Shown: piece by piece, positions 5,721-48,122 of the stretch
How positions within the stretch are numbered: the stretch's first letter is position 1
Layout of the letters: every line of letters begins with the position of its first letter
Source: an uncultured Eubacteriales bacterium
GTDB taxonomy: Bacteria; Acidobacteriota; Aminicenantia; Aminicenantales; Aminicenantaceae
Reading direction: 5' to 3'
Assembly: GCA_964514305.1 (NCBI GenBank)
Contig: CAZEQD010000001.1
Coordinates: forward strand, 27,181-91,180
Length of the DNA stretch: 64,000 nucleotides
Notes under the pieces: generated by a model
What the model was told of the DNA's origin: nothing
What the model saw: the letters and a program-made list of their open reading frames with translations, nothing else
Database searches by the model: none
Position numbers and translations under genes: made by a program

Positions 5721-6332
5721 TTGTTAAGCCAATTTGCAGGAAAGGAACTTCAAGAACTGAGAATGGGAAAAAAGACACCAGGCGAAAAAGTGGATACCTA
5801 TGTGCTTTTGGAAAAAATAAAACAAGGAGATAGAGAAGCTTTTATGACACTTACGGCTCTATATCAGAGGAAGGTCTTTTTATTAGCCTTTTCTTTTTTT
5901 CATAACAGAGAAGATGCCTTGGATGTTGTTCAAGAAACATTCCTTCGTTTATATCAGAAACTGGATATGTTTAAGCTAGGAAAAAATTTTCAAAATTGGC
6001 TGCTCCAGATCACTAAAAATATATGTATTGATTATTACAGGAGAAATTATGGAAAAAAGAACATATATGAGAAAAACAAGGAGTTAGAAGTATTGCCTTT
6101 GGTGAACAATGATAATGCTTTTACTTCTTTAGATTTGAAATCTATCTTTTCCCGCTGTTTGCAGAAGTTAACAGCCAAACAGCGGATGATTTTTGTCATG
6201 AAACATTACAATCAATTTAAATATAGGGAGATTGCCCAAATTTTAAATATTTCCTTAGGGACTGTAAAATCACTTCATTTCAAAGCTGTGCAAAACATGA
6301 AAAAGCAGATCAGTCCTTATTTGGAGAGATGA
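5721..6332 (+). CDS. RNA polymerase sigma-70 factor, ECF subfamily
   Basis: Region-2-like segment ETFLRLYQKL, region-4 HTH IAQILNISLGTVKSLHFKA. The real start may be the internal Met at 5763. Confidence 0.85.
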   Translation: MLSQFAGKELQELRMGKKTPGEKVDTYVLLEKIKQGDREAFMTLTALYQRKVFLLAFSFFHNREDALDVVQETFLRLYQKLDMFKLGKNFQNWLLQITKNICIDYYRRNYGKKNIYEKNKELEVLPLVNNDNAFTSLDLKSIFSRCLQKLTAKQRMIFVMKHYNQFKYREIAQILNISLGTVKSLHFKAVQNMKKQISPYLER

Positions 6333-7141
6333 AAATGAAGGGATGTAAAAAATATAAGAAAGAAATGGTGGATTTCCTCAGCCAAGAGCTTCCAGAGGAA
6401 AAGAGAAGGATGTTAGCTGCTCACCTTAATCAGTGCTCCCTTTGCCGGCAAGAATTTAATAGGTTAAAACAGTTTATGGAGGCAGCCAATTCCTTTCAGT
6501 CTGACATTGATCGGGTTATGGCTACGGTGGATTGGGAAAATCTGGCGCCAGAGATAACAGAGTTTGTTTATCAGAAAAAGGCATCCCTAGATAAAAAGAA
6601 AAGGGAGAAAAGGTGGTTTTCTTATCTTTTTCAGCCTGGATTGAGGCCAGTTTATGCTGGGGTGTTGATTGGTATCTTAATCGGCGCCTTGGCTACTTTG
6701 TTCATCTTCAGGCTTTCTTTGGTCAAGACTACAGGAAGAGGGGAAGTTTTAGTTTCTCCCAGGTTTTTGGAGAAAGCAGAATTGGAAATTGCTAGAAGGG
6801 AAACTCTTGATTATCTGGACAGAAGCCAATATCTGTTGTTAGATTTTGTCCAAACGCCGCCTGAAAAAGGACAGAAATTCTGGAAAAGTGAATATGTCTA
6901 TCAAAAAGCTAAAGACCTTCTTTCCCAGAAAAAATATATCAATCCTCAGTTGCGAAAGTTCAGGATGGCTAAAGCTAAAGAGATTTGTGACCAGATTGAA
7001 CTTCTTTTTTATGAACTGATGCAAATGAATGACCACCTCTCAGCCGAAGAGCTGCAAAGAATCCAGGGATTGATTGAAAAAAAACAGCTCCTGCTCAAAA
7101 TAAAATTATTGCAGAAAGAACTTAAAGAAAGTGAGGTTTAA
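6329..7141 (+). CDS. Putative anti-sigma factor (zf-HC2 zinc finger, single TM)
   Basis: ATGA overlap with the sigma factor gene. HLNQCSLCRQEF matches the H-x3-C-x2-C anti-sigma zinc-finger pattern. One TM segment (VYAGVLIGILIGALATLFIF). Confidence 0.6.
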   Translation: MKMKGCKKYKKEMVDFLSQELPEEKRRMLAAHLNQCSLCRQEFNRLKQFMEAANSFQSDIDRVMATVDWENLAPEITEFVYQKKASLDKKKREKRWFSYLFQPGLRPVYAGVLIGILIGALATLFIFRLSLVKTTGRGEVLVSPRFLEKAELEIARRETLDYLDRSQYLLLDFVQTPPEKGQKFWKSEYVYQKAKDLLSQKKYINPQLRKFRMAKAKEICDQIELLFYELMQMNDHLSAEELQRIQGLIEKKQLLLKIKLLQKELKESEV

Positions 7142-7988
7142 AGTGAAAAAAATAATAATTATCAATTTTATAATTTTGTTCCTAGCCTCATTCTCTCTTC
7201 AGGTTCATAGCCAGATCCGGCCAGATGAAAAGATTTTCCAGGATGCTAAGATTCTTATTTTTGATGAAAAATGGGAAAGTGCCCAGAAAAAGCTGGAAGA
7301 GTTAATTAGTAAATATCCTCAGAGTCCCTGGAGGGCTCAAGCCGTCTTTTATAAAGCTAAATGCTTGGAAGAGCAGGAAGGAAAAGAGGAGGGGGCTTTA
7401 GCCGCATATAAGGAGTTTCTTAAGCTTGAGTCTGATCAGCAGAGCCTGAGAGAAGATGCAGAAGTTTCTATTATTGACTTGGCCTCCGAGCTTTATCAAA
7501 AAGGGAAAAAGTCTTATCTAGGAGAAATCGAAAAGAGGTTAGCCAGCTCCAATAAAGTAGTAAGATATTATGCTGCTTTTGAATTAAGTTATGCAAAAGA
7601 CAAGAAAGTAGCGGTTGAGGGGATTCCGGTTCTAAAGGAGATTTTAGCTCAGGAGAAGGATCCTAGACTCAGAGATAGAGCCAAGATCGCTTTGCTCCGC
7701 ATTAATCCCGACACTCTTCAAGACATTGAAGAGGAAAGCTATCGAAATCAGGCTAGGATATTAAAAATCAGAGTTTACGAAAAGCCGCAAAAAAAACTGA
7801 AGCTTTCTTTAAATATCCCCTGGGCACTGGCTGATCTAGCTCTGGGAGCAATTCCTGCAGAAGAAAAGGCTTTGATGTGCCAAAAAGGCTATGATTTGGA
7901 TAAGATTATCCACGAATTAACCAGAATAAAAGGAAATATTATCGAAATTGAAGGTGAAGAGATAATTATTAAAATGTGGATAGATTAA
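7131..7988 (+). CDS. Secreted hypothetical protein with TPR-like/HEAT-like repeats
   Basis: Signal peptide (IIIINFIILFLASFSLQVHSQ), helical repeat composition, PRLRDRAKIAL HEAT-like motif. Coupled to the anti-sigma gene. Confidence 0.5.
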   Translation: MRFKVKKIIIINFIILFLASFSLQVHSQIRPDEKIFQDAKILIFDEKWESAQKKLEELISKYPQSPWRAQAVFYKAKCLEEQEGKEEGALAAYKEFLKLESDQQSLREDAEVSIIDLASELYQKGKKSYLGEIEKRLASSNKVVRYYAAFELSYAKDKKVAVEGIPVLKEILAQEKDPRLRDRAKIALLRINPDTLQDIEEESYRNQARILKIRVYEKPQKKLKLSLNIPWALADLALGAIPAEEKALMCQKGYDLDKIIHELTRIKGNIIEIEGEEIIIKMWID

Positions 7989-8000
7989 AGGAGGTAATAA

Positions 8001-8387
8001 ATGAAAAAAGCCGCATTTTTGATTGTCATCATTTTATCAGTAACTCTTATTTTAGCTGCTGTCCTTTTAGCTGAGAGAAATGTCGATCTTCAAACCATTA
8101 AAAAGGCTGTCAAGTCCAATCCTGCTTATGAAAAGGGCCGCGAAGTGAAGTGGATTAAGCTTTTGATTACTGATAATAAAACAAAAAAAGATAAAGTTAG
8201 AATTACTTTGCCTCTTTCTTTAGTAGAAACTTTTCTAAAATGTGCTAAAGATAAACCCCTGAGAATTCATAACGAGGAATGTGATCTTGATCTCAAAGCC
8301 CTTTTGGCTGAACTCAAGAAACTGGGGCCGACAGCCCTGATTGAAGTCTATGAAGAGGATGAGACAGTAAAAATCTGGTTGGAATAG
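8001..8387 (+). CDS. Hypothetical membrane-anchored/secreted small protein
   Basis: RBS aaaggaggtaataaATG. N-terminal hydrophobic segment. No recognisable domain. Confidence 0.4.
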   Translation: MKKAAFLIVIILSVTLILAAVLLAERNVDLQTIKKAVKSNPAYEKGREVKWIKLLITDNKTKKDKVRITLPLSLVETFLKCAKDKPLRIHNEECDLDLKALLAELKKLGPTALIEVYEEDETVKIWLE

Positions 8388-8411
8388 GGAAAAAAATTTA
8401 GCTGGAAATAA

Positions 8412-8446
8412 GGGGAAATGGAGGAATTTTCCATTTCCCCTTTTTA
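8412..8446 (+). terminator. Rho-independent terminator (11-bp stem ggggaaatgga/tccatttcccc + TTTTT)
   Basis: Perfect 11-bp stem, 7-nt loop, immediately followed by tttttat. Ends the ECF-sigma operon. Confidence 0.75.
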
Positions 8447-8548: not shown

Positions 8549-8577
8549 TTGACAAATTATGTTGTTGCTTGAATAAT
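8549..8577 (+). promoter_or_regulatory. Sigma-70-like promoter (TTGACA-17 bp-AATAAT) upstream of the citrate-module operon
   Basis: TTGACA at 8549-8554, 17-nt spacer, AATAAT at 8572-8577. RBS aagga about 7 nt before ATG 8601. Confidence 0.4.
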
Positions 8578-8600: not shown

Positions 8601-10160
8601 ATGGCTAGGCTTTATGAGTACCAAGGCAAAAAACTTCTCAGGGAAGCTGGCTTGCCCGTACCCAAGGGAGAGGTAGTTTCTTCTGCGTCTGAAGGCCGTA
8701 AAATCGCTGAACAACTTGATAGGCCAGTGGCCTTGAAGATGCAGGTCTGGCTGACTGGTAGAGCTGGTTTTGGGGGCATTCAATTTGCCGAGAAACCTCA
8801 ACAGGCTGAGAAACTGGCTGATAAAATGCTGGACACGAAGATTAAAAATTTTGTGGTTGAAAAGCTTCTGGTGGAAGAAAAGCTGGCTATCAAGGCTGAA
8901 TATTTTGTTGGTTTAATAATTGATGATGCCCAAAAAAAACCTGTTCTTATATTCAGCACGGTAGGAGGCACCGGTCTTGAAGAGGTAATTCGTTCCCAGC
9001 CAGAGAGAGTTGCTTATCTATATGTTGATGTCCGGCGTGGTTTGCAGGAATATGAAGTTCGCAATTTTCTGCTTCAATTAGGAATATCCGCTCGGCTCCT
9101 CCATAAATTGTCTGATTTCATAACGAAATTTTATAAGATGGCCCGCAGATACGATGCCCGCTCAGCTGAGATAAATCCTTTGGTCTTAACTGAAGACGAT
9201 AAAATTTATGCTGCCGACTGCCATATAGTAGTGGATGATTATGCAGTCTATCGCCATCCTGAACTGCAAATAGAAGTGGCCAGAGAATTTGACCGTCCGC
9301 CTACTCTTCTGGAAAAAATTGCTTATTGGGTTGAGGAAAAAGATCATCGAGGCACTTTTTATTTTTTTCAGATGGTTGAGGATGTTTCTGGTAAAGAAAA
9401 TTATATAGGTTTTCATGGAGCTGGCGGCGGTGGTTCGATGATGTCTATGGATGCTGTCCTCAGCCGAGGCTTTAAACTGGCTAATTATTGTGATACGAGC
9501 GGTAATCCAGCTGCCAGTAAGGTCTATCGAGCCGCTAAAATTATCCTTTCCCAACCTAATATCAAAGGCTATTTTGCCTCTGGTTCTGGCGTTGCCAGCC
9601 AGGAACAATTTCATTCAGCCCGGGGATTGGTGAAAGCTTTCCATGAGGAAAAGATTGAAATTCCGGCTGTTATCCGCTTGGGTGGTAACTATGAAGAAAA
9701 GGCCATCGAAATTTTAGGTAATTACCTGCGTCATCTGGCGGCTAAAGTAGAAGGCTACGGCCGAGATGACTCGCCTGAGTTTTGCGCTCAAAGGTTAGAA
9801 GAGTTAATTGAGGAGAATAAGGCTAAAAAGCATAAAGTAAGACCTATAAAGGAGCCAGAGATTTCACCTGCGGCTTACTCTTTTGAGACTTTAACAGGGA
9901 AAGTTTATATCGACCACCAGAAGTGTGCTAGTTGCCAAAGCAAAGGCTGTATTCAAGCATGCAGTGCTCAGATATTAAGACTTAAGGAGGGAAAACCTAT
10001 CCTCTCCATTACTCAAGAAGAAGCCAAAAAAGGCAAATGTACAGAATGTTTAGCCTGTGAAATTTATTGCACTTTTCATGAGAAAGCAGCTCTTTACATC
10101 CATCTTCCTATTTTGGGCCTTAAGGAATACCGTAGTAGAATTATCAAGGATAAGAAATGA
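8601..10160 (+). CDS. Succinyl-CoA synthetase beta-like / ATP-citrate lyase beta-like ATP-grasp subunit (candidate citryl-CoA synthetase large subunit) with C-terminal ferredoxin-like Cys cluster
   Basis: MARLYEYQGKKLLREAGLPVP matches the SucC/AclB N-terminus. ATP-grasp and CoA-ligase domains (GGGSMMSMD, NYCDTSGNPA). Extra C-terminal ~110 aa with C-x2-C-x4-C-x3-C ... C-x2-C-x2-C-x3-C. Confidence 0.8.
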   Translation: MARLYEYQGKKLLREAGLPVPKGEVVSSASEGRKIAEQLDRPVALKMQVWLTGRAGFGGIQFAEKPQQAEKLADKMLDTKIKNFVVEKLLVEEKLAIKAEYFVGLIIDDAQKKPVLIFSTVGGTGLEEVIRSQPERVAYLYVDVRRGLQEYEVRNFLLQLGISARLLHKLSDFITKFYKMARRYDARSAEINPLVLTEDDKIYAADCHIVVDDYAVYRHPELQIEVAREFDRPPTLLEKIAYWVEEKDHRGTFYFFQMVEDVSGKENYIGFHGAGGGGSMMSMDAVLSRGFKLANYCDTSGNPAASKVYRAAKIILSQPNIKGYFASGSGVASQEQFHSARGLVKAFHEEKIEIPAVIRLGGNYEEKAIEILGNYLRHLAAKVEGYGRDDSPEFCAQRLEELIEENKAKKHKVRPIKEPEISPAAYSFETLTGKVYIDHQKCASCQSKGCIQACSAQILRLKEGKPILSITQEEAKKGKCTECLACEIYCTFHEKAALYIHLPILGLKEYRSRIIKDKK

Positions 10161-10165
10161 TTGAA

Positions 10166-10280
10166 GTTTAAGGTTTAAAGTGAAAAGTGAAAAGTAAGAA
10201 GTGAGAAGTGAAGAGTGGGAAGTTAGGAGTTGAAGGTTTAAGGTTAATTTCTTTAAACTTTCAACTTTAAACTTTAAACC
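10166..10280. repeat. Intergenic array of phased 7-nt repeats (12 heptads: gtttaag gtttaaa gtgaaaa gtgaaaa gtaagaa gtgagaa gtgaaga gtgggaa gttagga gttgaag gtttaag gttaatt) followed by inverted GTTTAAA heptads
   Basis: Strict 7-nt periodicity over about 84 nt on the + strand. Then tttaaactttcaactttaaactttaaacc, which is the same heptad on the opposite strand. Sits between the beta-like and alpha-like subunit genes. Confidence 0.7.
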
Positions 10281-10294
10281 AATAAGAGGTTTTA

Positions 10295-11191
10295 ATGTCC
10301 ATTCTGGTTAACAAAAAATCAAGAGTTTGTGTGCAGGGAATTACCGGAAGAGAAGGCATGGTCCGAACTAAATTGATGCTTGATTATGGTACTCAAGTAG
10401 TAGCTGGGGTGACTCCAGGGAAGGGAGGAAAAGAAGTTTATGGAGTTCCTGTTTTCGATTCTGTCCAGCAAGCTATGACTAAAGTTGGTCAGCTCGACAT
10501 CAGTGTTATTTTTGTTCCCGCTCCCTTAGTCAAAAACGCAGCCTTAGAGGCAATAGATGCCGGCATTAAACTTCTTGTTCTTATTCCCGACCGAGTGCCT
10601 ATTTATGATGTTCTGGAAATTATAAGTTTTGCCCAAGAGAGAGGAGCTCGATTTGTGGGACCTAATACTCTGGGTCTGATCAGTCCGGGGAAAGCAGTCT
10701 TAGGTATGATAGGAGGTCGAGCCGAAAGAGCCAGAGAATGGTTTCAACCTGGAACGATCGGGGTCAGTTCCCGAAGTGGAGGCATGACTTCAGCAATTTC
10801 CTATTATCTAACTCAGGTAGGCCTCGGTCAGAGTACCATCGTTCATGTGGGCGGGGATGCTGTTTTAGGCCTTTCTCATCCAGAAATTATGGAGCTTTTT
10901 GAAAAAGATGAGCAAACAGAAATGGTCGTTATGTTTGGGGAAATAGGGACAACACAAGAGGAAAGAGTAGCTGATTTAATTAAGGAAGGGAAATTTACTA
11001 AGCCTCTTATTGCCTTTATAGGTGGCAAAGCCGCTAAATCCGGGACAAGATTTTCCCATGCGGGGGCTATTGTTGAAGGTTCTAAAGGCTCCTATGAAAC
11101 TAAAGTCAAGAAATTGAGGGAGGTTGGAGTTCATATTGCTCATTCGATCTCTGATATTCCCAATTTAGCTCTGCGCTTAAAAATATCCTAA
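10295..11191 (+). CDS. Succinyl-CoA synthetase alpha-like / ATP-citrate lyase alpha N-terminal-like CoA-binding subunit (candidate citryl-CoA synthetase small subunit)
   Basis: Collinear match to SucD: ...VQGITGREG..., GVTPGKGG, SRSGGMTS, phosphohistidine loop SHAGAI. RBS aagaggttttaATG. Confidence 0.85.
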   Translation: MSILVNKKSRVCVQGITGREGMVRTKLMLDYGTQVVAGVTPGKGGKEVYGVPVFDSVQQAMTKVGQLDISVIFVPAPLVKNAALEAIDAGIKLLVLIPDRVPIYDVLEIISFAQERGARFVGPNTLGLISPGKAVLGMIGGRAERAREWFQPGTIGVSSRSGGMTSAISYYLTQVGLGQSTIVHVGGDAVLGLSHPEIMELFEKDEQTEMVVMFGEIGTTQEERVADLIKEGKFTKPLIAFIGGKAAKSGTRFSHAGAIVEGSKGSYETKVKKLREVGVHIAHSISDIPNLALRLKIS

Positions 11192-11202
11192 GGAGACAAA
11201 CC

Positions 11203-11979
11203 ATGAGTGAACTTCATTGGAAAACCTCAATAACCGATATTAAGCCCAATAAAATTTGTGTAAGGGGTTATGCTGTAGACAAGTTGATGGGCAAAGTGTC
11301 TTTTGCTCAAGCTATTTATCTGATTTTAAAGGGGGAACTTCCTCCAGTGGAAGTAGGTAAATTAATTGAGGCTATTCTCGTTTCTTCAATTGATCATGGA
11401 GCTAGTCCTCCTTCGGTTTTAACAGCTCGAACTGTAGCTTCAACCGGAGCCGAGCTAAATGCGGCCATTGCCGCCGGCATTCTGGCTATTTCCCATTACC
11501 ACGGAGGAGCAGTGGAAGAAGGGATGCAACTTTTTTTAGAGGTTGACAGGAGGGCAACCAGCAAGAATATTTCCATCAGGAAAGCAGTTGCTGAAATATT
11601 AAAGGAAATGAAAGATAAGAAAAAAAGGGCTTCCGGTTTTGGCCATCGATTTCATTCTCAGGATCCGAGAACTAAAAAGCTTTTTTCCCTGGCTGAGGAG
11701 CTTGGCCTGGCCGGCAAGTTTGTAAAAATTGCTTTAACTATAGAAGAAGAATTAGCTGATCTTGTGGGCCACCCTCTGCCCCTAAATGTCGATGGGGCCA
11801 TAGCTGCTCTTCTTTGCGAGCTAGACATACCTCCAGAAATAGGCAATGCTTTCTTTATTATGGCGCGAGTTCCTGGACTGGTAGCCCATATCCATGAAGA
11901 AAAGAGCAGAATGAAACCAATGAGGAAGATCCATCCCCAGGATTATGAATATGACGGTCCCCCGGAGAGAGATTTATGA
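11203..11979 (+). CDS. Citrate synthase-like small protein (candidate citryl-CoA lyase)
   Basis: 258 aa with the citrate-synthase catalytic-domain motifs HYHGGA, GFGHRFHSQDPR, NVDG, ARVPGLVAHIHEE, but no CS N-terminal domain. That size and content fit the citryl-CoA lyase / AclA C-terminal family. Confidence 0.7.
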   Translation: MSELHWKTSITDIKPNKICVRGYAVDKLMGKVSFAQAIYLILKGELPPVEVGKLIEAILVSSIDHGASPPSVLTARTVASTGAELNAAIAAGILAISHYHGGAVEEGMQLFLEVDRRATSKNISIRKAVAEILKEMKDKKKRASGFGHRFHSQDPRTKKLFSLAEELGLAGKFVKIALTIEEELADLVGHPLPLNVDGAIAALLCELDIPPEIGNAFFIMARVPGLVAHIHEEKSRMKPMRKIHPQDYEYDGPPERDL

Positions 11980-12512
11980 TGGCCAGTCGAATTACATCTT
12001 TAATTCCTGAGTTTAATCTTATTGAAGATAGCCAGCTTCGTCAGCAAACAATTAAGGTCTGGCAGGAGGCAATAAAAAGTAGAAGCTGGACCTTGGAGGA
12101 TCTGAAAGCCATGCCTTTCACATTGTTGATTGAGGAAGCTCAGGTTAACATAATCCAGCATACCCGAGCTGTTACTATCTGTGCGTATAAAATTGGCCAA
12201 GTTTTAAAGAAGGAATACAGGGATAAAATCAGTCTTAACCAAGATTATCTGGTAGCAGGTGCCCTCCTTCATGATGTGGGTAAGCTTTTTGAGTTTAAGA
12301 GAGAGGCTAAAAAATTTGTCAAAAGTGAGGAAGGCAAGTTAATCCGTCATCCCATATCTGGGGCTGCATTTGCTTCTAAATATGGGCTTCCCTCCGAAAT
12401 CATTCATATTATCGCTGCGCATTCTAAAGAAGGAGACGGGGCCAGAAGGACGTTGGAAGCGGTCATCGTCCATCATGCTGATTTTATTAACTTTGAAATT
12501 TTCTTAGAATAA
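11976..12512 (+). CDS. HD domain phosphohydrolase
   Basis: HDVGK motif plus a downstream HHADF-type metal ligand. 178 aa. Overlaps and is coupled to the upstream gene. Confidence 0.65.
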   Translation: MMASRITSLIPEFNLIEDSQLRQQTIKVWQEAIKSRSWTLEDLKAMPFTLLIEEAQVNIIQHTRAVTICAYKIGQVLKKEYRDKISLNQDYLVAGALLHDVGKLFEFKREAKKFVKSEEGKLIRHPISGAAFASKYGLPSEIIHIIAAHSKEGDGARRTLEAVIVHHADFINFEIFLE

Positions 12513-12533: not shown

Positions 12534-13787
12534 TTGGGTAAGACATTTACCGAAAAAATTCTAAGCCTTAAGGCGGGTCGAGATGTTAAAGCTGGTGATA
12601 TTGTTACCGTCTCTCCAGATTACATTCTTTCTCACGATAATTCAGCAGCTATTATCCAAGAGTTTAAGAAGCTGGGTCTGGCCAAGATGAGGTGGCCCCA
12701 AAAGGTGGTTATCGTTTTGGATCATGTGGTTCCCGCTTCCTCGGAAAAATACGCTCTCAATCATAAGATAATCAGGCAGTTTGTAGCAGCCCAGAAAATA
12801 AAAAATTTTTTTGACATTTCGCGGGGAATATGCCACCAGGTTTTTTTTGAAGAAGGATTTGCCTTGCCAGGGAAGTTGATCTTAGGAGCCGATTCCCATA
12901 CTACCTTGGCTGGAGCTTTGGGCGCTTTTGCCGCTGGCATCGGCCGTTCAGAAGTAGCCGCTCTATGGGCGACAGATGAGATCTGGCTAAAGGTTCCTCC
13001 TACTATAAAAATTGAAATAGAAGGCAAAATCCCTGATGGAGTTTATGCCAAAGATATTATTCTCCATATAATTGGTCAGGAAGGAGCTGATAGAGCTAAT
13101 TACAGATCAGTTGAATTTTGGGGGAAAACAGCAAAAGAAATGAGCCTTTCTTCTCGACTGGTTCTGGCCAATATGGCGGCAGAAATGGGGGCCAAAAATG
13201 CTTTCTTTGCACCTGACAATAAAACAGAACAATGGCTATCTGGAAGGGCGAGGAGCGATTTCCAGCCCATTATTCCCGATCCAGAGGCTGATTATGAAGA
13301 TATTCTTCGATATGATATTTCTCAACTGGACCCTCAAGTTGCCTGTCCCCACAGGGTAGATAATGTCTGCCCCATCTCAGAAGTGGAAGGGCTGAAGTTC
13401 GATCAGGCAGTGATAGGTACCTGCACCAATGGTCGGGCTGAAGACCTGGAAGTAGCTGCTAAACTTTTGAAAGGAAAAAACATCCATCCTGGAGTGAGAG
13501 TTATAATTATTCCCGCTTCCTGCCTGGTCTACCTCCAGGCACTGCAAGCAGGTTGGTTGGAAGATTTATCCAAGGCAGGCTGCTTAATTTTAAATCCAGG
13601 TTGTGGGCCTTGCCTTGGAGCCCATGAGGGAGTTTTGGCCCCAGGAGAAGTGGCTTTGTCTACAGCCAACCGTAATTTTCGGGGAAGGATGGGAAGCAGA
13701 GAGGCTGAAATTTACCTGGCTTCGCCGGCCACTGTGGCCGCTTCTTCTTTGGAAGGAAAAATCACAGACCCTAGGAAATATCTATGA
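12534..13787 (+). CDS. Aconitase-family dehydratase large subunit, archaeal-type (3-isopropylmalate/homoaconitate/aconitate hydratase LeuC/HacA-like)
   Basis: 417 aa, MGKTFTEKIL... N-terminus typical of archaeal-type LeuC. GICHQV and Fe-S Cys motifs (GTCTNGR, PGCGPCLG). Confidence 0.85.
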   Translation: MGKTFTEKILSLKAGRDVKAGDIVTVSPDYILSHDNSAAIIQEFKKLGLAKMRWPQKVVIVLDHVVPASSEKYALNHKIIRQFVAAQKIKNFFDISRGICHQVFFEEGFALPGKLILGADSHTTLAGALGAFAAGIGRSEVAALWATDEIWLKVPPTIKIEIEGKIPDGVYAKDIILHIIGQEGADRANYRSVEFWGKTAKEMSLSSRLVLANMAAEMGAKNAFFAPDNKTEQWLSGRARSDFQPIIPDPEADYEDILRYDISQLDPQVACPHRVDNVCPISEVEGLKFDQAVIGTCTNGRAEDLEVAAKLLKGKNIHPGVRVIIIPASCLVYLQALQAGWLEDLSKAGCLILNPGCGPCLGAHEGVLAPGEVALSTANRNFRGRMGSREAEIYLASPATVAASSLEGKITDPRKYL

Positions 13788-14293
13788 AAAAAGGAAGAGT
13801 CTGGAGATATGGAGATAGCGTCAATACAGATGTTATCTTTCCCGGAAAATATACTTATTCTATTCAAGAGCCTAAGGAAATGGCTGCTCATGCTCTGGAG
13901 GATCTTGACCCTCAGTTTTCAAAGAAAGTAAGGCCAGGTGATGTTATTGTAGCCGGCTCGAATTTTGGCTGTGGCAGTTCAAGGGAGCAGGCGGCCACCT
14001 GTCTTAAATATGCTGGTCTGCAGGCGGTTATTGCTAAATCTTTTGCCCGGATTTTCTTTCGGAATGCCATTAATCAGGGACTACCTGTTATTCAGTCCCC
14101 TCAAGCTGTGGAGAATATTGCCAATGGCGAAGAAATTGCCATCGATTTTACTCGGGGTAAAATCAAAACCAAAACTAAATCCTTTAACTTTGAGCCTCTG
14201 CCTGATTATATCTTAAAGATTCTTGAGGCTGGAGGTCTTATTGCCTACGTTAAGAAAAAGCTGAAAAATACAAACAGGAGTAGAACAAAATGA
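13784..14293 (+). CDS. Aconitase-family dehydratase small subunit (LeuD/HacB-like)
   Basis: 169 aa, [14 protein letters not shown] and [13 protein letters not shown] swivel-domain motifs. Coupled to the large subunit. Confidence 0.8.
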
Positions 14294-15405
14294 GTAAATA
14301 TAAAATTGCTCTTTTGCCTGGCGATGGAGTAGGTCAGGACATCATGGAGGCAGCCATGATAGTTCTGGAGAGGATTGGTCTTGAAGCGGACTATGTTTAT
14401 GGTGATATTGGCTGGAGATTCTGGTGTCAGGAAGGAAATCCGCTGCCCGAACGGACTATCAGCCTCCTTAAGGAAACAGATGTCTGTCTTTTCGGAGCTA
14501 TAACTTCCAAGCCCAAGGAGGATGCTCTAAAAGAACTTAACCCTGATTTAAGAGGAAGGGGTTATGTCTATTTCAGCCCTATAGTACGTCTCCGCCAGGA
14601 ATTTGATCTTTATACTAATTTAAGGCCCTGCAAAGCTTATGCGGGCAATCCCCTTAATTACAGAGATAATATAGATTTGGTTATCTTCAGAGAGAATACT
14701 GAAGGTATGTATGCTGGCGTTGAATTTTACCCTCTGCCTGATCAGGTAAGAGAAGCTTTGCTCATTCACCCTAAAATGAAAAAGTTCCAGGATGTTCCTG
14801 TCGAAGAAATTGCTCTTTCCACCCGGATAATGACCAAGAAAGCCTGTAGCAGAATCCTGCGAAGAGCTTTTAATTATGCCCGGAGATATAAGCGGAGATC
14901 CGTGACTCTTGTCGAAAAACCGAATGTGCTCAGAGAAACAGGAGGATTTATCCTGGAAATAGCCCGGCAAATGGCTAAAGAGTATCCTGAAATTGAGTTC
15001 AGAGAAGCTAATATCGATGCCATGGCCATGTGGTTGGTCAAAAATCCTCAAGATTATGATGTCTTAGTGGCTGAGAATTTGTTTGGAGATATTATCTCTG
15101 ATCTTTCAGCTCAATTGGTAGGTGGTTTAGGTTTTGCCTGCAGCGGGAATATAGGTGATGATTATGCTCTTTTTGAACCCACCCATGGTTCTGCTCCTAA
15201 ATATAGCGGCCTCTACAAGGTGAATCCCATAGCCATGCTCCTGGCCACAAAAATGATGCTTGATTGGTTAGGTGAGGAGGATTTAGCTAAAAACTTGGAA
15301 AGGGCAGTAGCCCAAGTTATTAAAGAAGGTAAAGTAAGGACCTATGATTTAGGGGGTAACTCTTCGACACTGGATGTTGCCCGAGAAGTTGCTTCAAAAC
15401 TTTAG
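14290..15405 (+). CDS. Isocitrate/isopropylmalate/homoisocitrate dehydrogenase family protein
   Basis: 371 aa. IALLPGDGVGQDI, LRQEFDLYTNLRP, NLFGDIISDL and FEPTHGSAPK motifs of the beta-decarboxylating dehydrogenase family. Substrate cannot be assigned from sequence. Confidence 0.85.
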   Translation: MSKYKIALLPGDGVGQDIMEAAMIVLERIGLEADYVYGDIGWRFWCQEGNPLPERTISLLKETDVCLFGAITSKPKEDALKELNPDLRGRGYVYFSPIVRLRQEFDLYTNLRPCKAYAGNPLNYRDNIDLVIFRENTEGMYAGVEFYPLPDQVREALLIHPKMKKFQDVPVEEIALSTRIMTKKACSRILRRAFNYARRYKRRSVTLVEKPNVLRETGGFILEIARQMAKEYPEIEFREANIDAMAMWLVKNPQDYDVLVAENLFGDIISDLSAQLVGGLGFACSGNIGDDYALFEPTHGSAPKYSGLYKVNPIAMLLATKMMLDWLGEEDLAKNLERAVAQVIKEGKVRTYDLGGNSSTLDVAREVASKL

Positions 15406-15419
15406 GAATATATAAAAAA

Positions 15420-16670
15420 ATGGGTCAGACTATTATCGAAAAAATCATTCAAAGCCATACCCAGGAAGAAGTCAGACCTGGTAAAATTGTCTGGCTGGAT
15501 CTGGATATCAGGTCGGCCAGGGATTTCGGCGGCCCCAATGTTGTCCGCAACTACGAGAGGGAATATGGGGATAAACCAGTGGCTGATAGCCGTAAAACCT
15601 TTTTCACTTTTGATCTTTGTGCTCCGGCCTGTTCTTTAAAATATGCCGATAACCAGCAGCTTTGTCGTTTATTTGCTCGCCGTCAGAATATAAAAGTTTT
15701 TGATGTTGATCAAGGTATAGGTTCCCATGTTATGATAGAAGAGGGCTTGGCTAAAGCCAGGACTACCGTTGTCGGTACTGACAGTCATTTCAACATTCTG
15801 GGAGCAGTAGGCAGCTTTGGTCAGGGCATGGGCGATGTCGATATTGCCTTTGCCTTTAGAACAGGCCGAACCTGGTTTGAGGTACCGGAAACAGTAAAAA
15901 TTATTCTTAAGGGCAAGTTTTCTTTTCCGACCACAGCTAAGGATGTGACTCTTTTTATCCTAAAAAACCTGGGGACTTCTAAAGCAGCCTTAAAGGCAAT
16001 TGAATTTTATGGGGAAGCGTTGAGGCAGTTTTCTTTAGCTGAACGGATCACTCTCTGTTCGATGGTTACTGAGATGGCCGGCATTATTGGTTTTATCCCT
16101 GAATTTAAGGCTCAGACAAAAGCTGAAATAGAAAAAGTTTCAGGAGTGGAATTTAATCCCTTTCAAGCTGATGAGGATGCTTACTATACTGAGACAATTG
16201 GGATTGACATTGATGGTCTCCAGCCTCAGGTAGCTGCTCCTTTTTCCCCAACCAACGTTAGACCGGTCTCTGACTTAAAAGGAGTGAGGATCGACTCTGG
16301 CTTTATTGGTTCCTGTACAAATGGACGAGTGGAAGATTTTGCTTTGGCCAGTCGTATTTTAGCCGGCAGAAAAATAAAGCCTGGGATAATGCTTAAAATA
16401 GCCCCGGCCACCAGGCTGGTCTATCAACAGATGCTGGAAAAGGGGCTGATTAAAGAACTTTTTCAGAGTGGAGCCATTATTGATAGTCCTGGCTGTGGAG
16501 GATGTGCTGAAGGGCATATCGGTCTTACCGGAGAAGGCGAAATTCAAATAAGCAGTGCCAACAGAAATTTCGCCGGTAAACAAGGTAAGGGTCAAACCTA
16601 CCTGGCCAGCCCTGCTGTGGTTGCTGCCTCTTGTGTTTTAGGTCATATTGCCAGCCCGGAGGATTTATAA
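15420..16670 (+). CDS. Second aconitase-family dehydratase large subunit (archaeal-type LeuC/HacA-like paralog)
   Basis: 416 aa, MGQTIIEKII..., GTDSHF, GSCTNGR, PGCGGCAEG. Paralogous to 12534-13787. Confidence 0.8.
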   Translation: MGQTIIEKIIQSHTQEEVRPGKIVWLDLDIRSARDFGGPNVVRNYEREYGDKPVADSRKTFFTFDLCAPACSLKYADNQQLCRLFARRQNIKVFDVDQGIGSHVMIEEGLAKARTTVVGTDSHFNILGAVGSFGQGMGDVDIAFAFRTGRTWFEVPETVKIILKGKFSFPTTAKDVTLFILKNLGTSKAALKAIEFYGEALRQFSLAERITLCSMVTEMAGIIGFIPEFKAQTKAEIEKVSGVEFNPFQADEDAYYTETIGIDIDGLQPQVAAPFSPTNVRPVSDLKGVRIDSGFIGSCTNGRVEDFALASRILAGRKIKPGIMLKIAPATRLVYQQMLEKGLIKELFQSGAIIDSPGCGGCAEGHIGLTGEGEIQISSANRNFAGKQGKGQTYLASPAVVAASCVLGHIASPEDL

Positions 16671-17211
16671 AGTGAAAAAAAGCAGATTAAAAGGAAGGCT
16701 GTGGGTCCTTTGTGATAGCCAAGGTCAGTTGCTGGAAGATATTGATACCGATCAAATTTATCATAATGCATACCTCTACATTACTGATGTAGCCCAAATG
16801 GGTCAATATGCTCTGGGAAGTCTGAAAGGCTGGAAAGATTTTTCCCGAAAAGCTTCGGCCGGGGATATTATTGTGGCCGGCCGCAATTTTGGAGCCGGAT
16901 CTTCCAGACAGCAGGCAGTGGATTGTTTTATTTCTCTGGGAATATCGATGATTATGGCTCCTTCTTTTGGGGCCATTTATTTTAGAAATGCTGTTAATTC
17001 TGGCTTTCCTGTGCTCAGGAGTGCTGAAATTGAGTCATTAGTCAGGAATAAAGAATTGGAAAGTGGAGATATAGTCAAGGTTGATTTCAGACAGGGCCAG
17101 GCTATAAACATAACTAAAAAGATCTCTTTTACTTTAGAGTCCATGAGTGATGTCCAATACCAAATATACTTGGCCGGGGGATTATTCAGATATGGACGGA
17201 AGTTAAGATAA
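16648..17211 (+). CDS. Second aconitase-family small subunit (divergent LeuD-like)
   Basis: 187 aa, DIDTDQIYH and GRNFGAGSSRQQA motifs. Overlaps and is coupled to the large subunit. Confidence 0.7.
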   Translation: MPARRIYKVKKSRLKGRLWVLCDSQGQLLEDIDTDQIYHNAYLYITDVAQMGQYALGSLKGWKDFSRKASAGDIIVAGRNFGAGSSRQQAVDCFISLGISMIMAPSFGAIYFRNAVNSGFPVLRSAEIESLVRNKELESGDIVKVDFRQGQAINITKKISFTLESMSDVQYQIYLAGGLFRYGRKLR

Positions 17212-20138: not shown

Positions 20139-20678
20139 ATGGAAAAGGAAAAGAAAGAATTTGGAGAAAATAATCAGGAGATAAAGATAGATTATGATAA
20201 TATTGATGTAGCTCGAATTATGGATCAAATTAAACAAAAAATTGCTAAGGAAGGCCGCTCAGGAGAAGAAAGCAGGAAAAATTCAGGGGCAAGACTAATG
20301 TACCCTTCGTTTAGTCCGGAATTAGAAGAAACAGGAGGTCTCAAGAATAAATTAAAGAAAATACTGTTGACAGTAATGAAACCATTCTCTCCTCTAATAA
20401 AACTTCTAATTTTGCCTGTTTACGATGAATTTAGGCATACTGTTCGCATCCTGGACCAAACTAACAGGAAAATAGATGATCTTTATGAGCGTGAGAGAAA
20501 AATGGAAGGCTGGGAATATATTAAACTCCTCCATAATTTATCTCATAATATGGTAGTTGAATTAACTAAACTGAAAATAGAAGAAGAAGATTTAAAGCTT
20601 AAGCTGAGAATACTGGAAAAAGACTTTGAGTTTTTAAGAAAAAGAGAGAAAGCTTTAGAGAAGCACCTCTTCAGATGA
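20139..20678 (+). CDS. Hypothetical coiled-coil protein
   Basis: 179 aa, highly charged, heptad-rich C-terminus. Overlaps and is coupled to the first glycosyltransferase. Confidence 0.4.
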   Translation: MEKEKKEFGENNQEIKIDYDNIDVARIMDQIKQKIAKEGRSGEESRKNSGARLMYPSFSPELEETGGLKNKLKKILLTVMKPFSPLIKLLILPVYDEFRHTVRILDQTNRKIDDLYERERKMEGWEYIKLLHNLSHNMVVELTKLKIEEEDLKLKLRILEKDFEFLRKREKALEKHLFR

Positions 20679-21853
20679 AAATAGCTTTTGTCGTCCAGAG
20701 ATATGGCTTGGAGATTAGCGGTGGAGCTGAACTCCACTGCCGCTGGGTAGCTGAGCATATGAGTAAGCACTGGCAGGTGGAAGTTTTAACCACCCGAGCT
20801 TATGATTACATTACCTGGAAGAATCATTATCATCAAGGTCAGGAAGTAATAAATGGTCTTTCCATTAGAAGGTTTTCTGTAGCCAAAAAAAGAGAGCCGC
20901 GAAGATTCGGCCGTATCCAATCTTATATTTTAAATAACAGGCACAGCCGCCAAGAAGAGCTAAGATGGCTGGAAGAAGAAGGGCCTTATTCTCCTCAACT
21001 TATTCAATATATAGAAGATAACCGCCATAATTATGATTATTTTATTTTCTTCAGCTACCGTTATTATCATTCTTTTTGGGGGATAAAGGCTGTGCCTGAC
21101 AAAAGCATTCTGGTGCCTACAGCCGAACATGATCCTGTTATTTATCTCGACATTTTTAGAGAGTTATTCAACAAACCTCAGGCTATTATATATAACTCTG
21201 AAGAAGAGAGAAAAATAATAAATTCAGTGGCTGACAACAGTCATATATTGGGGGAAGTGGTTGGAGTAGGTACGGAAATCCCGCCTTCCTATTCTGCTCA
21301 AAAATTCCGTCAGGATTACCTGATAGATGGAGATTATATCCTTTATTTAGGTCGAATCGATGAGAACAAGGGCTGTGGTCAACTGTTTGATTATTTTTTA
21401 AGGTTTAAAAGGCAGACAGGTTCGGAGATTAAATTAGTCTTAATTGGCAGTACTGTCCTTAGAATCCCTTCTCATCCTGATATTCTCTTTTTTGGGTTTG
21501 TCTCGGATGAAGATAAATTTTCAGCTTTAGCTGGAGCCCTGCTTTTGGTTATGCCTTCATTTTATGAAAGCTTGTCTATGGTTACCTTGGAAGCCTGGGC
21601 AGCTGGCAAACCGGTTTTGGCTAACGGAAGATGTGAGGTTTTAAAAGGACAATGTTTAAGAAGCAATGCTGGTCTTTTTTATGAAAATTACGATGAATTC
21701 AGTCAAGCTCTCCAGCTTCTTTTGTCTTCTGATCAGCTACGGCAAGCCCTCGGCTCCAACGGCCGCAATTATTATCTTAAGCGTTATACCTGGGATATTA
21801 TAGAAAAGAAATATCTAACTGTAATAGCTCAGCTTGAAGAAAGGAAAAAGTGA
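20675..21853 (+). CDS. Glycosyltransferase family 4 (type A of a duplicated pair)
   Basis: 392 aa, N-terminal VQRYGLEISGGAELH and GRIDENKGCGQL (GT4 GRxxxEKG-like) motifs, C-terminal GT1-fold domain. Confidence 0.7.
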   Translation: MKIAFVVQRYGLEISGGAELHCRWVAEHMSKHWQVEVLTTRAYDYITWKNHYHQGQEVINGLSIRRFSVAKKREPRRFGRIQSYILNNRHSRQEELRWLEEEGPYSPQLIQYIEDNRHNYDYFIFFSYRYYHSFWGIKAVPDKSILVPTAEHDPVIYLDIFRELFNKPQAIIYNSEEERKIINSVADNSHILGEVVGVGTEIPPSYSAQKFRQDYLIDGDYILYLGRIDENKGCGQLFDYFLRFKRQTGSEIKLVLIGSTVLRIPSHPDILFFGFVSDEDKFSALAGALLLVMPSFYESLSMVTLEAWAAGKPVLANGRCEVLKGQCLRSNAGLFYENYDEFSQALQLLLSSDQLRQALGSNGRNYYLKRYTWDIIEKKYLTVIAQLEERKK

Positions 21854-23984: not shown

Positions 23985-23991
23985 GACAAAT

Positions 23992-38491: not shown

Positions 38492-38504
38492 TTGTCACTC
38501 CTTG

Positions 38505-40698: not shown

Positions 40699-40700
40699 TT

Positions 40701-42068: not shown

Positions 42069-42069
42069 T

Positions 42070-43155: not shown

Positions 43156-43156
43156 T

Positions 43157-47755: not shown

Positions 47756-47822
47756 TAGATATTATTTGTTTCTTATTGTCATGTAATCATTTCCAAATTC
47801 GCAATGATTACTATTGAACAAA

Positions 47823-48122
47823 TCATGGGCAAGGTTTAAATTCATCATAAATAATTTGTTCTTTTTTGACCTTGTCCATTTTTAATTTCTGTTTAGCAAT
47901 TTTTTCTATTTTTTCTAAAGCCAAGAGTGAGGATTTTTCAGCCTCTAACTTTTCTACTTCTTTCCTAAGGGTAAGAAGTCTTTCTTCAAGCTGGCCTATC
48001 TTGTAACCCAATCTGACCGATTCAATTTGGTTCCAGACGTAAAAAATAAGAACAAGCATGGCCAGAACAGTCAAAACCAGGCCCATCAATATTTCTTTTT
48101 TGTTAAGTTTTTTCCTAACCAT
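47823..48122 (-). CDS. ftsL: Cell division protein FtsL-like
   Basis: 99 aa: single TM plus coiled coil, between rsmH and ftsI. Confidence 0.5.
   Translation of the reverse strand: MVRKKLNKKEILMGLVLTVLAMLVLIFYVWNQIESVRLGYKIGQLEERLLTLRKEVEKLEAEKSSLLALEKIEKIAKQKLKMDKVKKEQIIYDEFKPCP

Follow-up and report, generated by a model that had tools for sequence, protein, structure and literature searches.

Operon and domain layout of the beta-like gene

The window analyzed here, a stretch of 64,000 nucleotides, carries an operon whose first gene (ORF 8601-10160) encodes a succinyl-CoA-synthetase-beta/ACL-beta-like protein. Both ATP-grasp_2 and Citrate_bind exceed the Pfam gathering score in this 519-aa product, and the CoA_binding and Ligase_CoA domains of the following alpha-like subunit complete a heteromeric, SCS-like pair (Table 1). 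The alpha-like subunit reached 312 bits with TIGR01019, under the cut-off of 353. The next ORF scored above the cut-off with two citryl-CoA lyase (CCL) models, NF004869 (268 bits, cut-off 212) and NF004866 (264 bits, cut-off 245). Since alpha (10295-11191) and CCL (11203-11979) are separate ORFs, an alpha-CCL fusion of the AclAB/ACLY kind was rejected for the window.

Table 1. Positions of genes, domains, motifs and candidate signals at the beta-like locus
Feature	Position	Strand	Evidence or remark
Terminator-like hairpin of upstream gene	8410-8442
Promoter-like site TTGACA-17-AATAAT before the operon	8549..8577	+	Consensus match only, 11/12 positions
Beta-like subunit with fused Fe-S module	8601..10160	+	519 aa + stop
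ATP-grasp (nucleotide-binding) domain, residues 3-195	8607..9185	+	Pfam ATP-grasp_2, E=5e-48, 163.7 bits (cut-off 29.5)
ACL-type citrate-binding / CoA-ligase-like domain, residues 273-389	9417..9767	+	Pfam Citrate_bind, 32.0 bits (cut-off 26.8)
Variable linker, residues 406-425	9816..9875	+	Alignment with split-system betas; conservation profile
Predicted ferredoxin-type Fe-S domain, residues 426-511	9876..10133	+	AF2 pLDDT, Fer4_9, 8ys5_D profile match, Foldseek
Cys motif 1, C442-x2-C445-x4-C450-x3-C454	9924..9962	+	CxxCx4Cx3C
Cys motif 2, C480-x2-C483-x2-C486-x3-C490	10038..10070	+	CxxCxxCx3C
Perfect hairpin of 18 bp within the beta-alpha spacer (134 nt)	10226..10268	+	Lineage-specific
Alpha-like subunit (CoA-binding + phosphohistidine), 298 aa	10295..11191	+	Pfam CoA_binding, Ligase_CoA; ...FSHAGA...
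Citryl-CoA lyase, 258 aa, truncated citrate-synthase fold	11203..11979	+	NCBIfam; Pfam Citrate_synt
HD/HDIG-domain protein	11976..12512	+	Kept in operon, including the distant cluster-less clade
Aconitase / isopropylmalate-isomerase / homoaconitase-family large + small subunits, first pair	12534..14293	+
Isocitrate / homoisocitrate / isopropylmalate dehydrogenase-family enzyme	14290..15405	+
Aconitase-family large + small subunits, second pair	15420..17211	+

Promoter-like sites are no more frequent in the region as a whole than in shuffled sequence. The 18-bp repeat of the beta-alpha hairpin has no second copy within the window, and the hairpin was rejected as a conserved regulatory element because neither length nor sequence of the spacer is conserved in 77 related loci. 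A search of the window for a 2-oxoacid:ferredoxin oxidoreductase or another redox partner gave none.

The gene order beta-FeS, alpha, citryl-CoA lyase, HD, aconitase-type and isocitrate-dehydrogenase-type enzyme was found in essentially all of 80 related loci, nearly all from Aminicenantes, and CCL adjoins the ligase genes in essentially all of them. These loci are the best 80 of 458 genome matches, obtained by a profile scan with closer alignment of the domain; the wider taxonomy given below was taken from protein searches and not from this genome scan.

The full-length AF2 model of the beta-like protein (pTM = 0.65) aligned in Foldseek over about 400 to 420 columns to SCS-beta, CCS and ACLY structures. 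Only SCS, CCS and ACLY betas were matched, and the C-terminal tail was without any match. No solved SCS, CCS or ACL beta chain covers this tail, the matches to the query stopping at or before residue ~404. The module was likewise not described in the literature on CCS, malate thiokinase, citramalyl-CoA, Aminicenantes and type II ACL, a survey mostly without subscription papers and hence no proof of absence. Within these bounds, the statement of the initial annotation that no Fe-S domain is known from SCS, CCS and ACL betas is borne out.

Conservation and predicted fold of the cysteine-rich tail

The tail of the protein reads ...KCASCQSKGCIQAC...(25 aa)...KCTECLACEIYC... and a stretch of 49 residues within it holds 8 of the 11 Cys of the whole chain. 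All eight lie inside 9915-10085 with the Pfam domains upstream, in line with the initial description of a ferredoxin-type extension after complete ATP-grasp and CoA-ligase domains; its reading of the second motif as canonical and of the first as irregular also agrees with the spacings, CxxCxxCx3C and the variant CxxCx4Cx3C, respectively. Random placement would produce such crowding with P ~5e-7 for one given window of residues and ~2e-4 when all windows are considered.

Conservation is a stronger argument for a genuine module than these crowding statistics. Cys was found at all eight positions in 118 of 120 homologues (66-88% identity), which answers for these homologues the question, raised beforehand, of whether the spacing is kept. 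A single uninterrupted tblastn match spans the junction between beta and Fe-S domain in 79 of 80 GTDB species-representative loci of Aminicenantes. The mean frequency of the major residue is 0.79 in the Fe-S domain (426-511) and 0.79 in the ATP-grasp domain, against 0.51 in the linker (406-425). This pattern argues that the eight-Cys domain is real and under selection. Cys395, invariant in Aminicenantes, was rejected as a ninth ligand because split betas carry Ile or Val at this position.

The Fe-S domain comprises, in this order, a beta-hairpin (YxFxTxTGxxxID), the two Cys motifs and LPIxGLxEY. AF2 modeled it with a pLDDT of ~90-94 within the full-length protein and of 82.5 alone. No Pfam or NCBIfam model reached its threshold for the domain, and no NCBIfam model came near its cut-off. 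The proposed Fer4 search did return matches to the Fer4 clan, but these stayed just under the Pfam cut-off, with Fer4_9 at 22.8 bits for the whole protein and at 26.6 bits for the domain alone (cut-off 27). Closest by sequence, though under all family cut-offs, were delta subunits of OorD/KorD type from 2-oxoacid oxidoreductases, with the OGOR delta subunit 8ys5_D as a weak profile match (E=6e-4). When the domain alone was submitted to Foldseek, most of the 50 matches listed were Fe-S proteins of ferredoxin type, all of them weak (E >= 0.03, TM 0.4-0.5); HgcB came first and subunit D of archaeal RNA polymerase (2pa8_D; prob 0.98, TM 0.47) second. The domain constitutes a separate family; no more than 129 relatives were found among 1.84 billion representatives.

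A ferredoxin-type fold and ligand pattern can be predicted for the tail, which has the 4+4 ligand pattern of a 2x[4Fe-4S] domain. It resembles the 2x[4Fe-4S] ferredoxins (OorD/KorD, HgcB) in the two Cys motifs, the cross-ligation logic, the predicted beta-hairpin/helix core and a size of ~60-90 aa. It departs from them in the spacing of motif 1, in that neither motif has the usual Pro behind its last Cys, and in an additional N-terminal hairpin (YxFxTxTG) as well as a C-terminal LPIxGLxEY followed by a helix.

Fused, split and cysteine-poor forms

In Moorella, in Desulfo- and Syntropho- lineages and in one Nitrososphaerota archaeon, the Fe-S domain is encoded by a separate gene of ~95 aa. Seven independent contexts have the order beta (418-423 aa), Fe-S protein (94-102 aa), alpha (298-302 aa) and HpcH/CitE-type lyase, with genes that overlap or stand a few bases apart. 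The split betas, 44-52% identical to the query beta, end after helix 392-405, just before the linker. Fused and split forms stand in a Rosetta-stone relation. For several fused forms the nearest domain relative is a stand-alone protein, which suggests repeated fusion or fission.

The module occurs with a citrate-synthase-fold CCL in the window, with a TIM-barrel HpcH lyase in the split systems, where the gene is of the malyl/citramalyl-CoA-lyase type, with an alpha-CCL fusion at locus L098, and without any adjacent lyase at locus L092. What it accompanies is the ligase rather than the lyase. The idea of an adaptor that docks the lyase was rejected, given two unrelated lyase folds and the occurrence without an adjacent lyase. 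The neighbors of the split relatives are of malyl-CoA-lyase type, glycolate-oxidase type, malic enzyme or MDH, and OAD; these contexts fit a malyl-CoA route of glycolate/glyoxylate fermentation, which PMC8092247 cites for Syntrophobotulus and Moorella. At least 458 species-level genomes have members of the module-bearing clade, whose contexts are those of citrate, malyl-CoA and citramalate. Cluster-bearing forms carry the names of anaerobes (Aminicenantes, Moorella, Desulfohalobiaceae, Desulfatiglandaceae, Syntrophales). As placed by the protein searches, the module belongs to a whole, undescribed branch of ACL-like enzymes, whose bacterial and archaeal hosts are for the most part known or presumed anaerobes.

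Several clades have fewer Cys. One of them (P0158, P0160, P0162, P0177, P0183, P0186; 6-7 representatives) is xxxC/CCCx, that is, it has kept Cys4 of motif 1 and Cys1-3 of motif 2 and has lost Cys1-3 of motif 1 and Cys4 of motif 2. This complementary loss matches cross-ligation, in which Cys1-3 of motif 1 pair with Cys4 of motif 2 and the reverse. By position, the four remaining Cys are the exact ligand set expected for a single cluster of a 2x[4Fe-4S] ferredoxin. In the main stand-alone clade, motif 2 has no Cys at its first position (CCCC/GCCC in 103 of 118 proteins). Finally, a cluster-less clade of ~118 proteins, of Planctomycetota/Verrucomicrobiota type, has kept the domain with 2-3 of the 8 Cys. 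Its names (Planctomycetota, Phycisphaerales, Chthoniobacterales, Myxococcales) are those of mostly aerobic groups; one case (L098) lies in a matching operon of beta, alpha(+CCL), HD, aconitase and Iso_dh, and one form adjoins SCO1/SenC. The cluster-less and the one-cluster forms probably each go back to a single evolutionary event and hence provide few independent observations.

Role of the module and relation to known ligases

ADP-forming acid-CoA ligases (SCS, CCS, ACL, malate thiokinase) use no cofactor beyond Mg-nucleotide, and a conserved Fe-S module would change this cofactor-free picture. We propose an ATP-citrate-lyase-like system in which the beta-like protein is the beta-type subunit and the downstream alpha and citryl-CoA lyase are its partners; the system would catalyze citrate + ATP + CoA <-> citryl-CoA <-> acetyl-CoA + oxaloacetate. 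Citrate as the substrate is suggested by the neighboring genes and the Pfam matches; the aconitase-type and isocitrate-dehydrogenase-type enzymes would then share an operon with a citrate-cleaving system. The ~90 C-terminal residues would form a ferredoxin-fold module, whose eight Cys most likely hold two cross-ligated [4Fe-4S] clusters. We regard the module as the third integral part of these ADP-forming hydroxy-acid:CoA ligases, which make up a distinct clade; it is fused to beta in the window, and other lineages encode it as a tightly linked subunit of ~95 aa between beta and alpha.

For the module itself we favor, by a modest measure, a non-catalytic structural or assembly role in the ligase; in anaerobes the module would have two [4Fe-4S] clusters as its core. 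A structural core role, the assembly or stabilization of the beta/alpha ligase, is proposed because the ligase reaction is redox-free and because the module outlives the loss of its cluster ligands. In anaerobes the two clusters would nucleate the fold, and the enzyme would then stay intact only with a supply of Fe-S and without O2. A parallel may be seen in subunit D of RNA polymerase (2pa8_D), whose domain is a non-redox structural or assembly Fe-S domain that is kept in some lineages after the loss of its Cys ligands. The beta tail likewise keeps its domain after Cys loss; the hosts are unrelated, and the comparison is one of analogy and weak fold similarity. Against a structural role, electron conduits classically have such a chain of two clusters, and the strict conservation of all eight Cys in Aminicenantes is predicted by a functional redox or sensing role as well.

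Such a role, in which O2 or an exchange with the cellular ferredoxin/thiol pool changes the state of the clusters and thereby switches the ligase, is conceivable but doubtful. The cluster state would gate ATP-consuming citrate cleavage against ATP-yielding citrate synthesis. All eight Cys are invariant in the anaerobic lineages, and the names on cluster-bearing and cluster-less forms divide into anaerobes and mostly aerobic groups, one of the latter forms lying beside SCO1/SenC. Moreover, the ACL reaction, at -8 kJ/mol for 1 mM, is near equilibrium (Table 1 of PMC13147460), and a switch of direction would therefore be meaningful. However, the module survives without clusters, so that sensing cannot be its sole role, and contexts of malyl-CoA, citramalyl-CoA and citrate type, which differ in their redox logic, all have this one module. 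The coupling to redox state or O2 envisaged in the initial annotation is thereby rejected as the core role, given a cluster-less clade that keeps the domain with 2-3 of 8 Cys; it may yet operate beyond that. A redox-gated or even redox-coupled enzyme of ATP-citrate-lyase type, in which the potential of the ferredoxin pool sets ATP-spending cleavage against ATP-making synthesis by a switch that would extend to the sister malyl-CoA and citramalyl-CoA ligases of anaerobes, is a speculative and rather unlikely proposal. If true, redox gating would be a previously unknown tie between thioester/ATP chemistry and the cellular redox state.

A tethered electron carrier, serving as a built-in ferredoxin for a pyruvate- or 2-oxoglutarate:ferredoxin oxidoreductase metabolon or for an unknown redox step, is improbable. 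The OorD/KorD-type delta subunits are the best sequence relatives, a layout with two clusters is what electron wires typically show, and citrate, malyl-CoA and citramalate contexts all make or use acetyl-CoA or pyruvate. But neither the ligase nor the lyase reaction involves a redox change, delta subunits are only weakly similar, no neighboring oxidoreductase is conserved, as neighbors vary by context and the window has none, and cluster-less orthologues are found in a matching operon. Nor is the module an isolated fusion event, or an electron carrier captured by the operon, the alternative first suggested; it is instead a dedicated module of the whole ligase clade, with its own gene between beta and alpha elsewhere.

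We regard it as very improbable that an Fe-S cluster is catalytic or binds substrate, be it the hydroxy-acid, as in aconitase, or CoA. The inferred substrates of the clade are 2-hydroxy di- or tricarboxylates, and the CCCC/GCCC stand-alone clade would have one iron without Cys ligand, or a [3Fe-4S] cluster; against this, the window protein and most sampled family members have four Cys per cluster, solved structures of SCS, CCS and ACL run the same chemistry cluster-free, and cluster-less orthologues exist. The chance that a frameshift, a misassembly or a fortuitous Cys-rich tail explains the domain is negligible: although the module is truly a small ORF of its own in other phyla, the reading frame is unbroken in the window, many independent assemblies, represented by 120 protein clusters, carry the identical fusion, as do 79 of 80 species genomes, and the Cys pattern is invariant among homologues, which together refute for the Aminicenantes lineage the merged ferredoxin ORF that the initial annotation had kept in reserve.

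The two-, one- and zero-cluster forms would provide a natural series for the function of an Fe-S domain in a non-redox enzyme. The module would explain why these genes are annotated as mere 'ATP-grasp protein' and 'hypothetical protein', and could mark ACL-like citrate enzymes for which rTCA/TCA gene surveys at present have no screen. In Aminicenantes, the module suggests a route that is sensitive to O2, possibly conserves ATP and connects acetyl-CoA + oxaloacetate with 2-oxoglutarate.

Among known systems, the citryl-CoA synthetase CcsA/CcsB of Hydrogenobacter thermophilus and its citryl-CoA lyase (PDB 6hxq; Aoshima et al. 2004, cited in PMC13147460) are alike in having separate SCS-like beta and alpha subunits and a separate truncated citrate-synthase-like lyase, and they should catalyze the same overall reaction. 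Unlike the query, CcsA (429 aa) is without an Fe-S domain, its match stopping at residue 404, and the Aminicenantes host is a presumed fermenter, whereas Hydrogenobacter CCS belongs to an rTCA autotroph. The query beta scored 140.8 bits with 6hxq_B and 212.8 bits with Thermus SCS-beta (3ufx_B), with 27% and 32-33% identity in the Foldseek alignments to 6hxq_B and the 3ufx chains, respectively. Being nearer to Thermus SCS-beta and to the Fe-S-associated betas, it was rejected as an orthologue of Aquificales CcsA, and this proximity to SCS counts against the citrate-ligase reading.

The query shares the architecture of ATP-grasp beta and CoA-binding/phosphohistidine alpha with SucC/SucD and MtkA/MtkB, which have no third subunit, unlike the Fe-S-module clade. 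Identity with SucCD was rejected on NF001913 (244.7, cut-off 370), TIGR01016 (244.5, cut-off 375.6) and, for alpha, NF004230 (309.8, cut-off 336), and identity with MtkA of the malate-CoA ligase MtkAB on NF010647 (159.9, cut-off 604).

With ACL (Chlorobium AclB/AclA, 6hxj; human ACLY) the query shares the beta domain of Citrate_bind type, at a low similarity of 87 bits to ACL beta, and the sister clade without clusters has alpha and CCL joined in one protein of 570 aa, exactly as in AclA. The position of the Fe-S module corresponds to the beta-to-alpha linker of ACLY; we know of no described ACL with a ferredoxin-type domain. The partner set resembles an ACL-type system with a lineage of its own more than it does Aquificales CCS or true SucCD.

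The beta-FeS gene and its cysteine-rich tail

The gene, here called beta-FeS, is one uninterrupted reading frame of 519 codons, in which the ATP-grasp_2 and ATP-citrate lyase (ACL)-type Citrate_bind domains both scored over their Pfam gathering thresholds. A linker of ~20 residues after Citrate_bind leads into the Fe-S domain, or tail (residues 426-511), containing the sequence YSFETLTGKVYIDHQKCASCQSKGCIQACSAQILRLKEGKPILSITQEEAKKGKCTECLACEIYCTFHEKAALYIHLPILGLKEY. Its two motifs, CxxCx4Cx3C (motif 1) and CxxCxxCx3C (motif 2), concentrate 8 of the 11 Cys of the protein in 49 residues (P ~2e-4 for random placement, over all windows of the protein). The initial annotation had placed an eight-Cys ferredoxin-like cluster at 9915-10085, and all eight residues fall within this interval with the spacing it gave. 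Conservation was identical for the Fe-S and ATP-grasp domains (0.79), the linker being free to vary (0.51).

Coordinates of the features
Feature	Position	Strand	Remark
ECF sigma factor gene	5721-6332		directly upstream of operon block
zf-HC2 anti-sigma-like gene	6329-7141		
TPR/HEAT protein gene	7131-7988		
128-aa protein without family	8001-8387		
Terminator-like hairpin	8410-8442		ahead of beta-FeS
Promoter-like site	8549-8577		TTGACA-17-AATAAT, ahead of beta-FeS
beta-FeS	8601-10160	+	
ATP-grasp_2	residues 3-195		
Citrate_bind	residues 273-389		
Motif 1	9924-9962		C442, C445, C450, C454
Motif 2	10038-10070		C480, C483, C486, C490
SCS-alpha-like gene	10295-11191		
Citryl-CoA lyase (CCL) gene	11203-11979		over NCBIfam cut-offs
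HD/HDIG-domain gene	11976-12512		between CCL and aconitase-type genes
First aconitase/IPM-isomerase-family large/small pair	start of 12534-17211		3' of HD gene
Isocitrate/homoisocitrate-dehydrogenase-family gene	within 12534-17211		between the two pairs
Second aconitase/IPM-isomerase/homoaconitase-type large/small pair	end of 12534-17211		paralogous to first
Four tandem GT1 glycosyltransferase genes	20675-25170	+	
Complete dcw cluster	33782-49482	-	mraZ, rsmH, PBP, murE/F, mraY, murD, ftsW, murG, murC, ftsQ, ftsA, ftsZ
FBPase_3 gene	50923-52029	-	PF01950, E=7.5e-163
One-cluster fused beta, xxxC/CCCx	L092 3719-5338		539 aa

Among the listed homologues from a search of 5.8 billion proteins (n=120, 515-551 aa, 66-88% identity, 99-100% coverage), the named ones were Aminicenantes, and 118 of the 120 had Cys at all eight positions. 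A genome scan detected relatives in 458 GTDB species representatives. Aminicenantes made up nearly all of the best 80, and in 79 of the 80 one unbroken tblastn match spanned the beta/Fe-S junction. Because of these homologues, the retained Cys, the continuous junctions and the conservation of the domain, a frameshift merging a separate ferredoxin ORF, which the initial annotation had considered, is ruled out as source of the fusion in the Aminicenantes lineage.

Searched alone, the tail reached 26.6 bits with Fer4_9 (cut-off 27) and matched the OorD, HgcB and FwdF models weakly. The best PDB match of a profile of diverse family members was 8ys5_D (E=6e-4), the ferredoxin-like delta subunit of 2-oxoglutarate oxidoreductase. 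AlphaFold modelled the domain with confidence, the pLDDT being ~90-94 as part of the full-length protein and 82.5 for the isolated domain. Foldseek matches to the domain model were weak (E at least 0.03, TM 0.4-0.5), ferredoxin-type Fe-S domains making up most of the 50 listed; HgcB ranked first and archaeal RNA polymerase subunit D second, both weakly, and Pyrococcus ferredoxin and the ferredoxin domains of hydrogenase and oxalate oxidoreductase were also among them. An exhaustive HMMER search with the last 119 residues against 1.84 billion representatives recovered only 129 relatives, comprising fusions of ~470-541 aa and stand-alone proteins of ~85-110 aa. The hallmarks of the family are an N-terminal YxFxTxTGxIxID hairpin, ECLACE and LPIxGLxEY. 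From the sub-threshold scores, the weak fold matches and the 129 relatives, we therefore conclude that the tail is a small, distinct family inside the ferredoxin superfamily. Its predicted ligands and weak fold and sequence similarity would make it ferredoxin-type, yet it stays under all curated thresholds. For this enzyme superfamily we found no family model or solved structure with an Fe-S domain or subunit and, in a literature coverage that was incomplete and may have missed an earlier description, no paper on one; a 2026 survey of rTCA genes is silent on any such domain.

Fused, split and cluster-less forms

A profile of the stand-alone form matched 550 proteins, almost all annotated 'hypothetical protein', with no Pfam domain on record for 118 of the 120 listed. 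Names among the matches included Moorella, Desulfohalobiaceae, Desulfatiglandaceae, Syntrophales, Thermoleophilia and a Nitrososphaerota archaeon. Each of the seven independent contexts retrieved had a 418-423-aa beta-like gene followed by the small Fe-S gene and a 298-302-aa alpha-like gene, with frames overlapping or few bases apart, and an HpcH/CitE-type (malyl- or citramalyl-CoA-lyase-like) gene 3' of alpha. These split betas share 44-52% identity with the beta part of beta-FeS and end just ahead of its linker. Malic enzyme is a neighbour in Moorella; a second neighbourhood holds GlcDEF-type glycolate oxidase, lactate/glycolate permease, malate dehydrogenase and oxaloacetate decarboxylase, and a third glutamate mutase and methylaspartate ammonia-lyase. 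The contexts suggest malyl-CoA and citramalyl/methylmalyl-CoA routes in anaerobes, with ligase genes now annotated hypothetical.

The nearest domain relatives of several fused forms were stand-alone proteins, which suggests that fusion or fission happened repeatedly. Fused and split forms stand in a classic Rosetta-stone relation, and the Fe-S module belongs, as a dedicated part, to an ACL/CCS-like (CCS, citryl-CoA synthetase) ligase clade for hydroxy-di/tricarboxylic acids. Accidental capture by the operon, also raised initially, is rejected, the module lying between beta and alpha in 7/7 split contexts. Loci L081-L090 and L095-L097 carry split beta, a 95-aa Fe-S protein and alpha with an HpcH/CitE-type lyase in two kinds of cluster. 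Glycolate-oxidase-type genes, glycolate/lactate permease, MDH and oxaloacetate decarboxylase or malic enzyme mark the first kind, glutamate mutase and methylaspartate ammonia-lyase the second.

All eight Cys were present in 58 representatives at 50% identity. In the xxxC/CCCx clade (motif 1/motif 2, x marking a lost Cys), the fourth Cys of motif 1 and the first three of motif 2 were kept and the other four lost together; the retained four are exactly those that ligate a single cluster when a 2x[4Fe-4S] ferredoxin is cross-ligated. One such beta (locus L092) has PrpD/MmgE- and aconitase-type genes on one side and, on the other, a DinB-like gene and then alpha; no lyase gene adjoins it at the locus, and this system may use another tricarboxylate substrate. 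In the main stand-alone clade (P0250-P0366), 103 of 118 proteins had seven Cys (CCCC/GCCC), the first of motif 2 being missing (..RxGTECLACEYEC..), which would fit a predicted [3Fe-4S]+[4Fe-4S] or one cluster with one non-Cys ligand.

A third clade of ~118 proteins, with names from Planctomycetota, Phycisphaerales, Chthoniobacterales and Myxococcales, kept the domain but just 2-3 of its eight Cys, the usual pattern being W-I-A-H / D-L-C-C. Such a cluster-less gene heads a window-type operon in L098 (6157-9459; metagenome contig, 59% GC), the only long contig inspected, with 44% (beta), 60% (alpha) and 49% (CCL) identity to the window. There, a single 570-aa AclA-like protein combines alpha with CCL; its gene is followed by those for HD, aconitase-type and Iso_dh proteins, with SCO1/SenC encoded close by. 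Frameshifts of the kind usual in long-read assembly affect the genes for beta, aconitase and IDH. The one-time cluster-II ligand positions, now H/D/L/C, might form a putative mononuclear metal site. Each ligand-loss pattern is probably a single evolutionary event, hence the independent observations are few. Taken together, the patterns argue that the Cys behave as ferredoxin cluster ligands and that the domain is needed even without clusters.

Operon and surroundings

The order beta-FeS, alpha, CCL, HD, AcnL, AcnS, IDH, AcnL2 recurred in essentially every related locus of sufficient length. For the aconitase-type pairs every equivalog score was under its cut-off, and family models do not tell which pair takes citrate. 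Aminicenantes and the distant cluster-less clade share the HD/HDIG gene at this place in the operon. The beta-FeS/alpha spacer (10161-10294) measures 134 nt vs a median of 42 nt in 77 related loci, and contains an 18-bp perfect hairpin (10226-10268, MFE z = -2.6) just after purine-rich GTGAAAA/GTGAGAA-like repeats; no second copy of the element was found within the window, and other Aminicenantes genomes have different strong palindromes at this spot (e.g. L056, L027). Many Aminicenantes genomes show synteny between the operon and the genes at 5721-8387, directly 5' of it. The remainder of the window is ordinary chromosome (dcw cluster, glycosyltransferases, peptidases). We take the PF01950 gene to encode the bifunctional fructose-1,6-bisphosphate aldolase/phosphatase of archaeal type, which acts in gluconeogenesis and is characteristic of archaea and of bacteria that branch deeply. 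Plausibly, the operon links acetyl-CoA and oxaloacetate with 2-oxoglutarate via citrate in this fermentative lineage; Aminicenantes are listed as an anaerobic fermenter in PMC5459899.

Proposed role and relation to known ligases

The module accompanies the beta/alpha ligase with either lyase fold and also without an adjacent lyase gene, and persists where the ligand Cys are gone; both reactions, that of the ligase and that of the lyase, are redox-neutral. We favour, as somewhat probable taken as a whole, a module with a structural or assembly role in the beta/alpha ligase, which in anaerobes would fold around two [4Fe-4S] clusters and would thereby make the enzyme dependent on Fe-S supply and probably O2-labile. 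The closest analogy, by a weak fold match only, comes from archaeal RNA polymerase subunit D, whose ferredoxin-like domain is non-redox and has lost its Cys in some lineages. A regulatory redox or O2 switch, as proposed in the initial annotation, would agree with the strict Cys conservation in anaerobes and with an ACL reaction near equilibrium (-8 kJ/mol at 1 mM; PMC13147460), and we keep it as a live, though rather improbable, alternative. A tethered electron carrier appears less likely still; no oxidoreductase partner for the module was found within the window. A substrate-binding cluster is the least probable, and very much so. An Fe-S module in these ligases would come as a surprise to those who study the enzymology of the TCA cycle or Fe-S proteins; it is directly testable and settles no long-standing question.

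In NCBIfam, beta and alpha scored under the SucC/SucD and MtkA equivalog cut-offs, and the system falls outside both SucCD and MtkAB. The beta scored higher with Thermus SCS-beta (212.8 bits) than with Hydrogenobacter CcsA (140.8 bits) or Chlorobium AclB (87 bits), and did not qualify as an orthologue of the Aquificales CcsA. No solved chain covers the tail, no match reaching past query residue ~404. Since alpha and CCL are encoded separately, the window system is not an AclAB; it would work like CCS/CCL or ACL.
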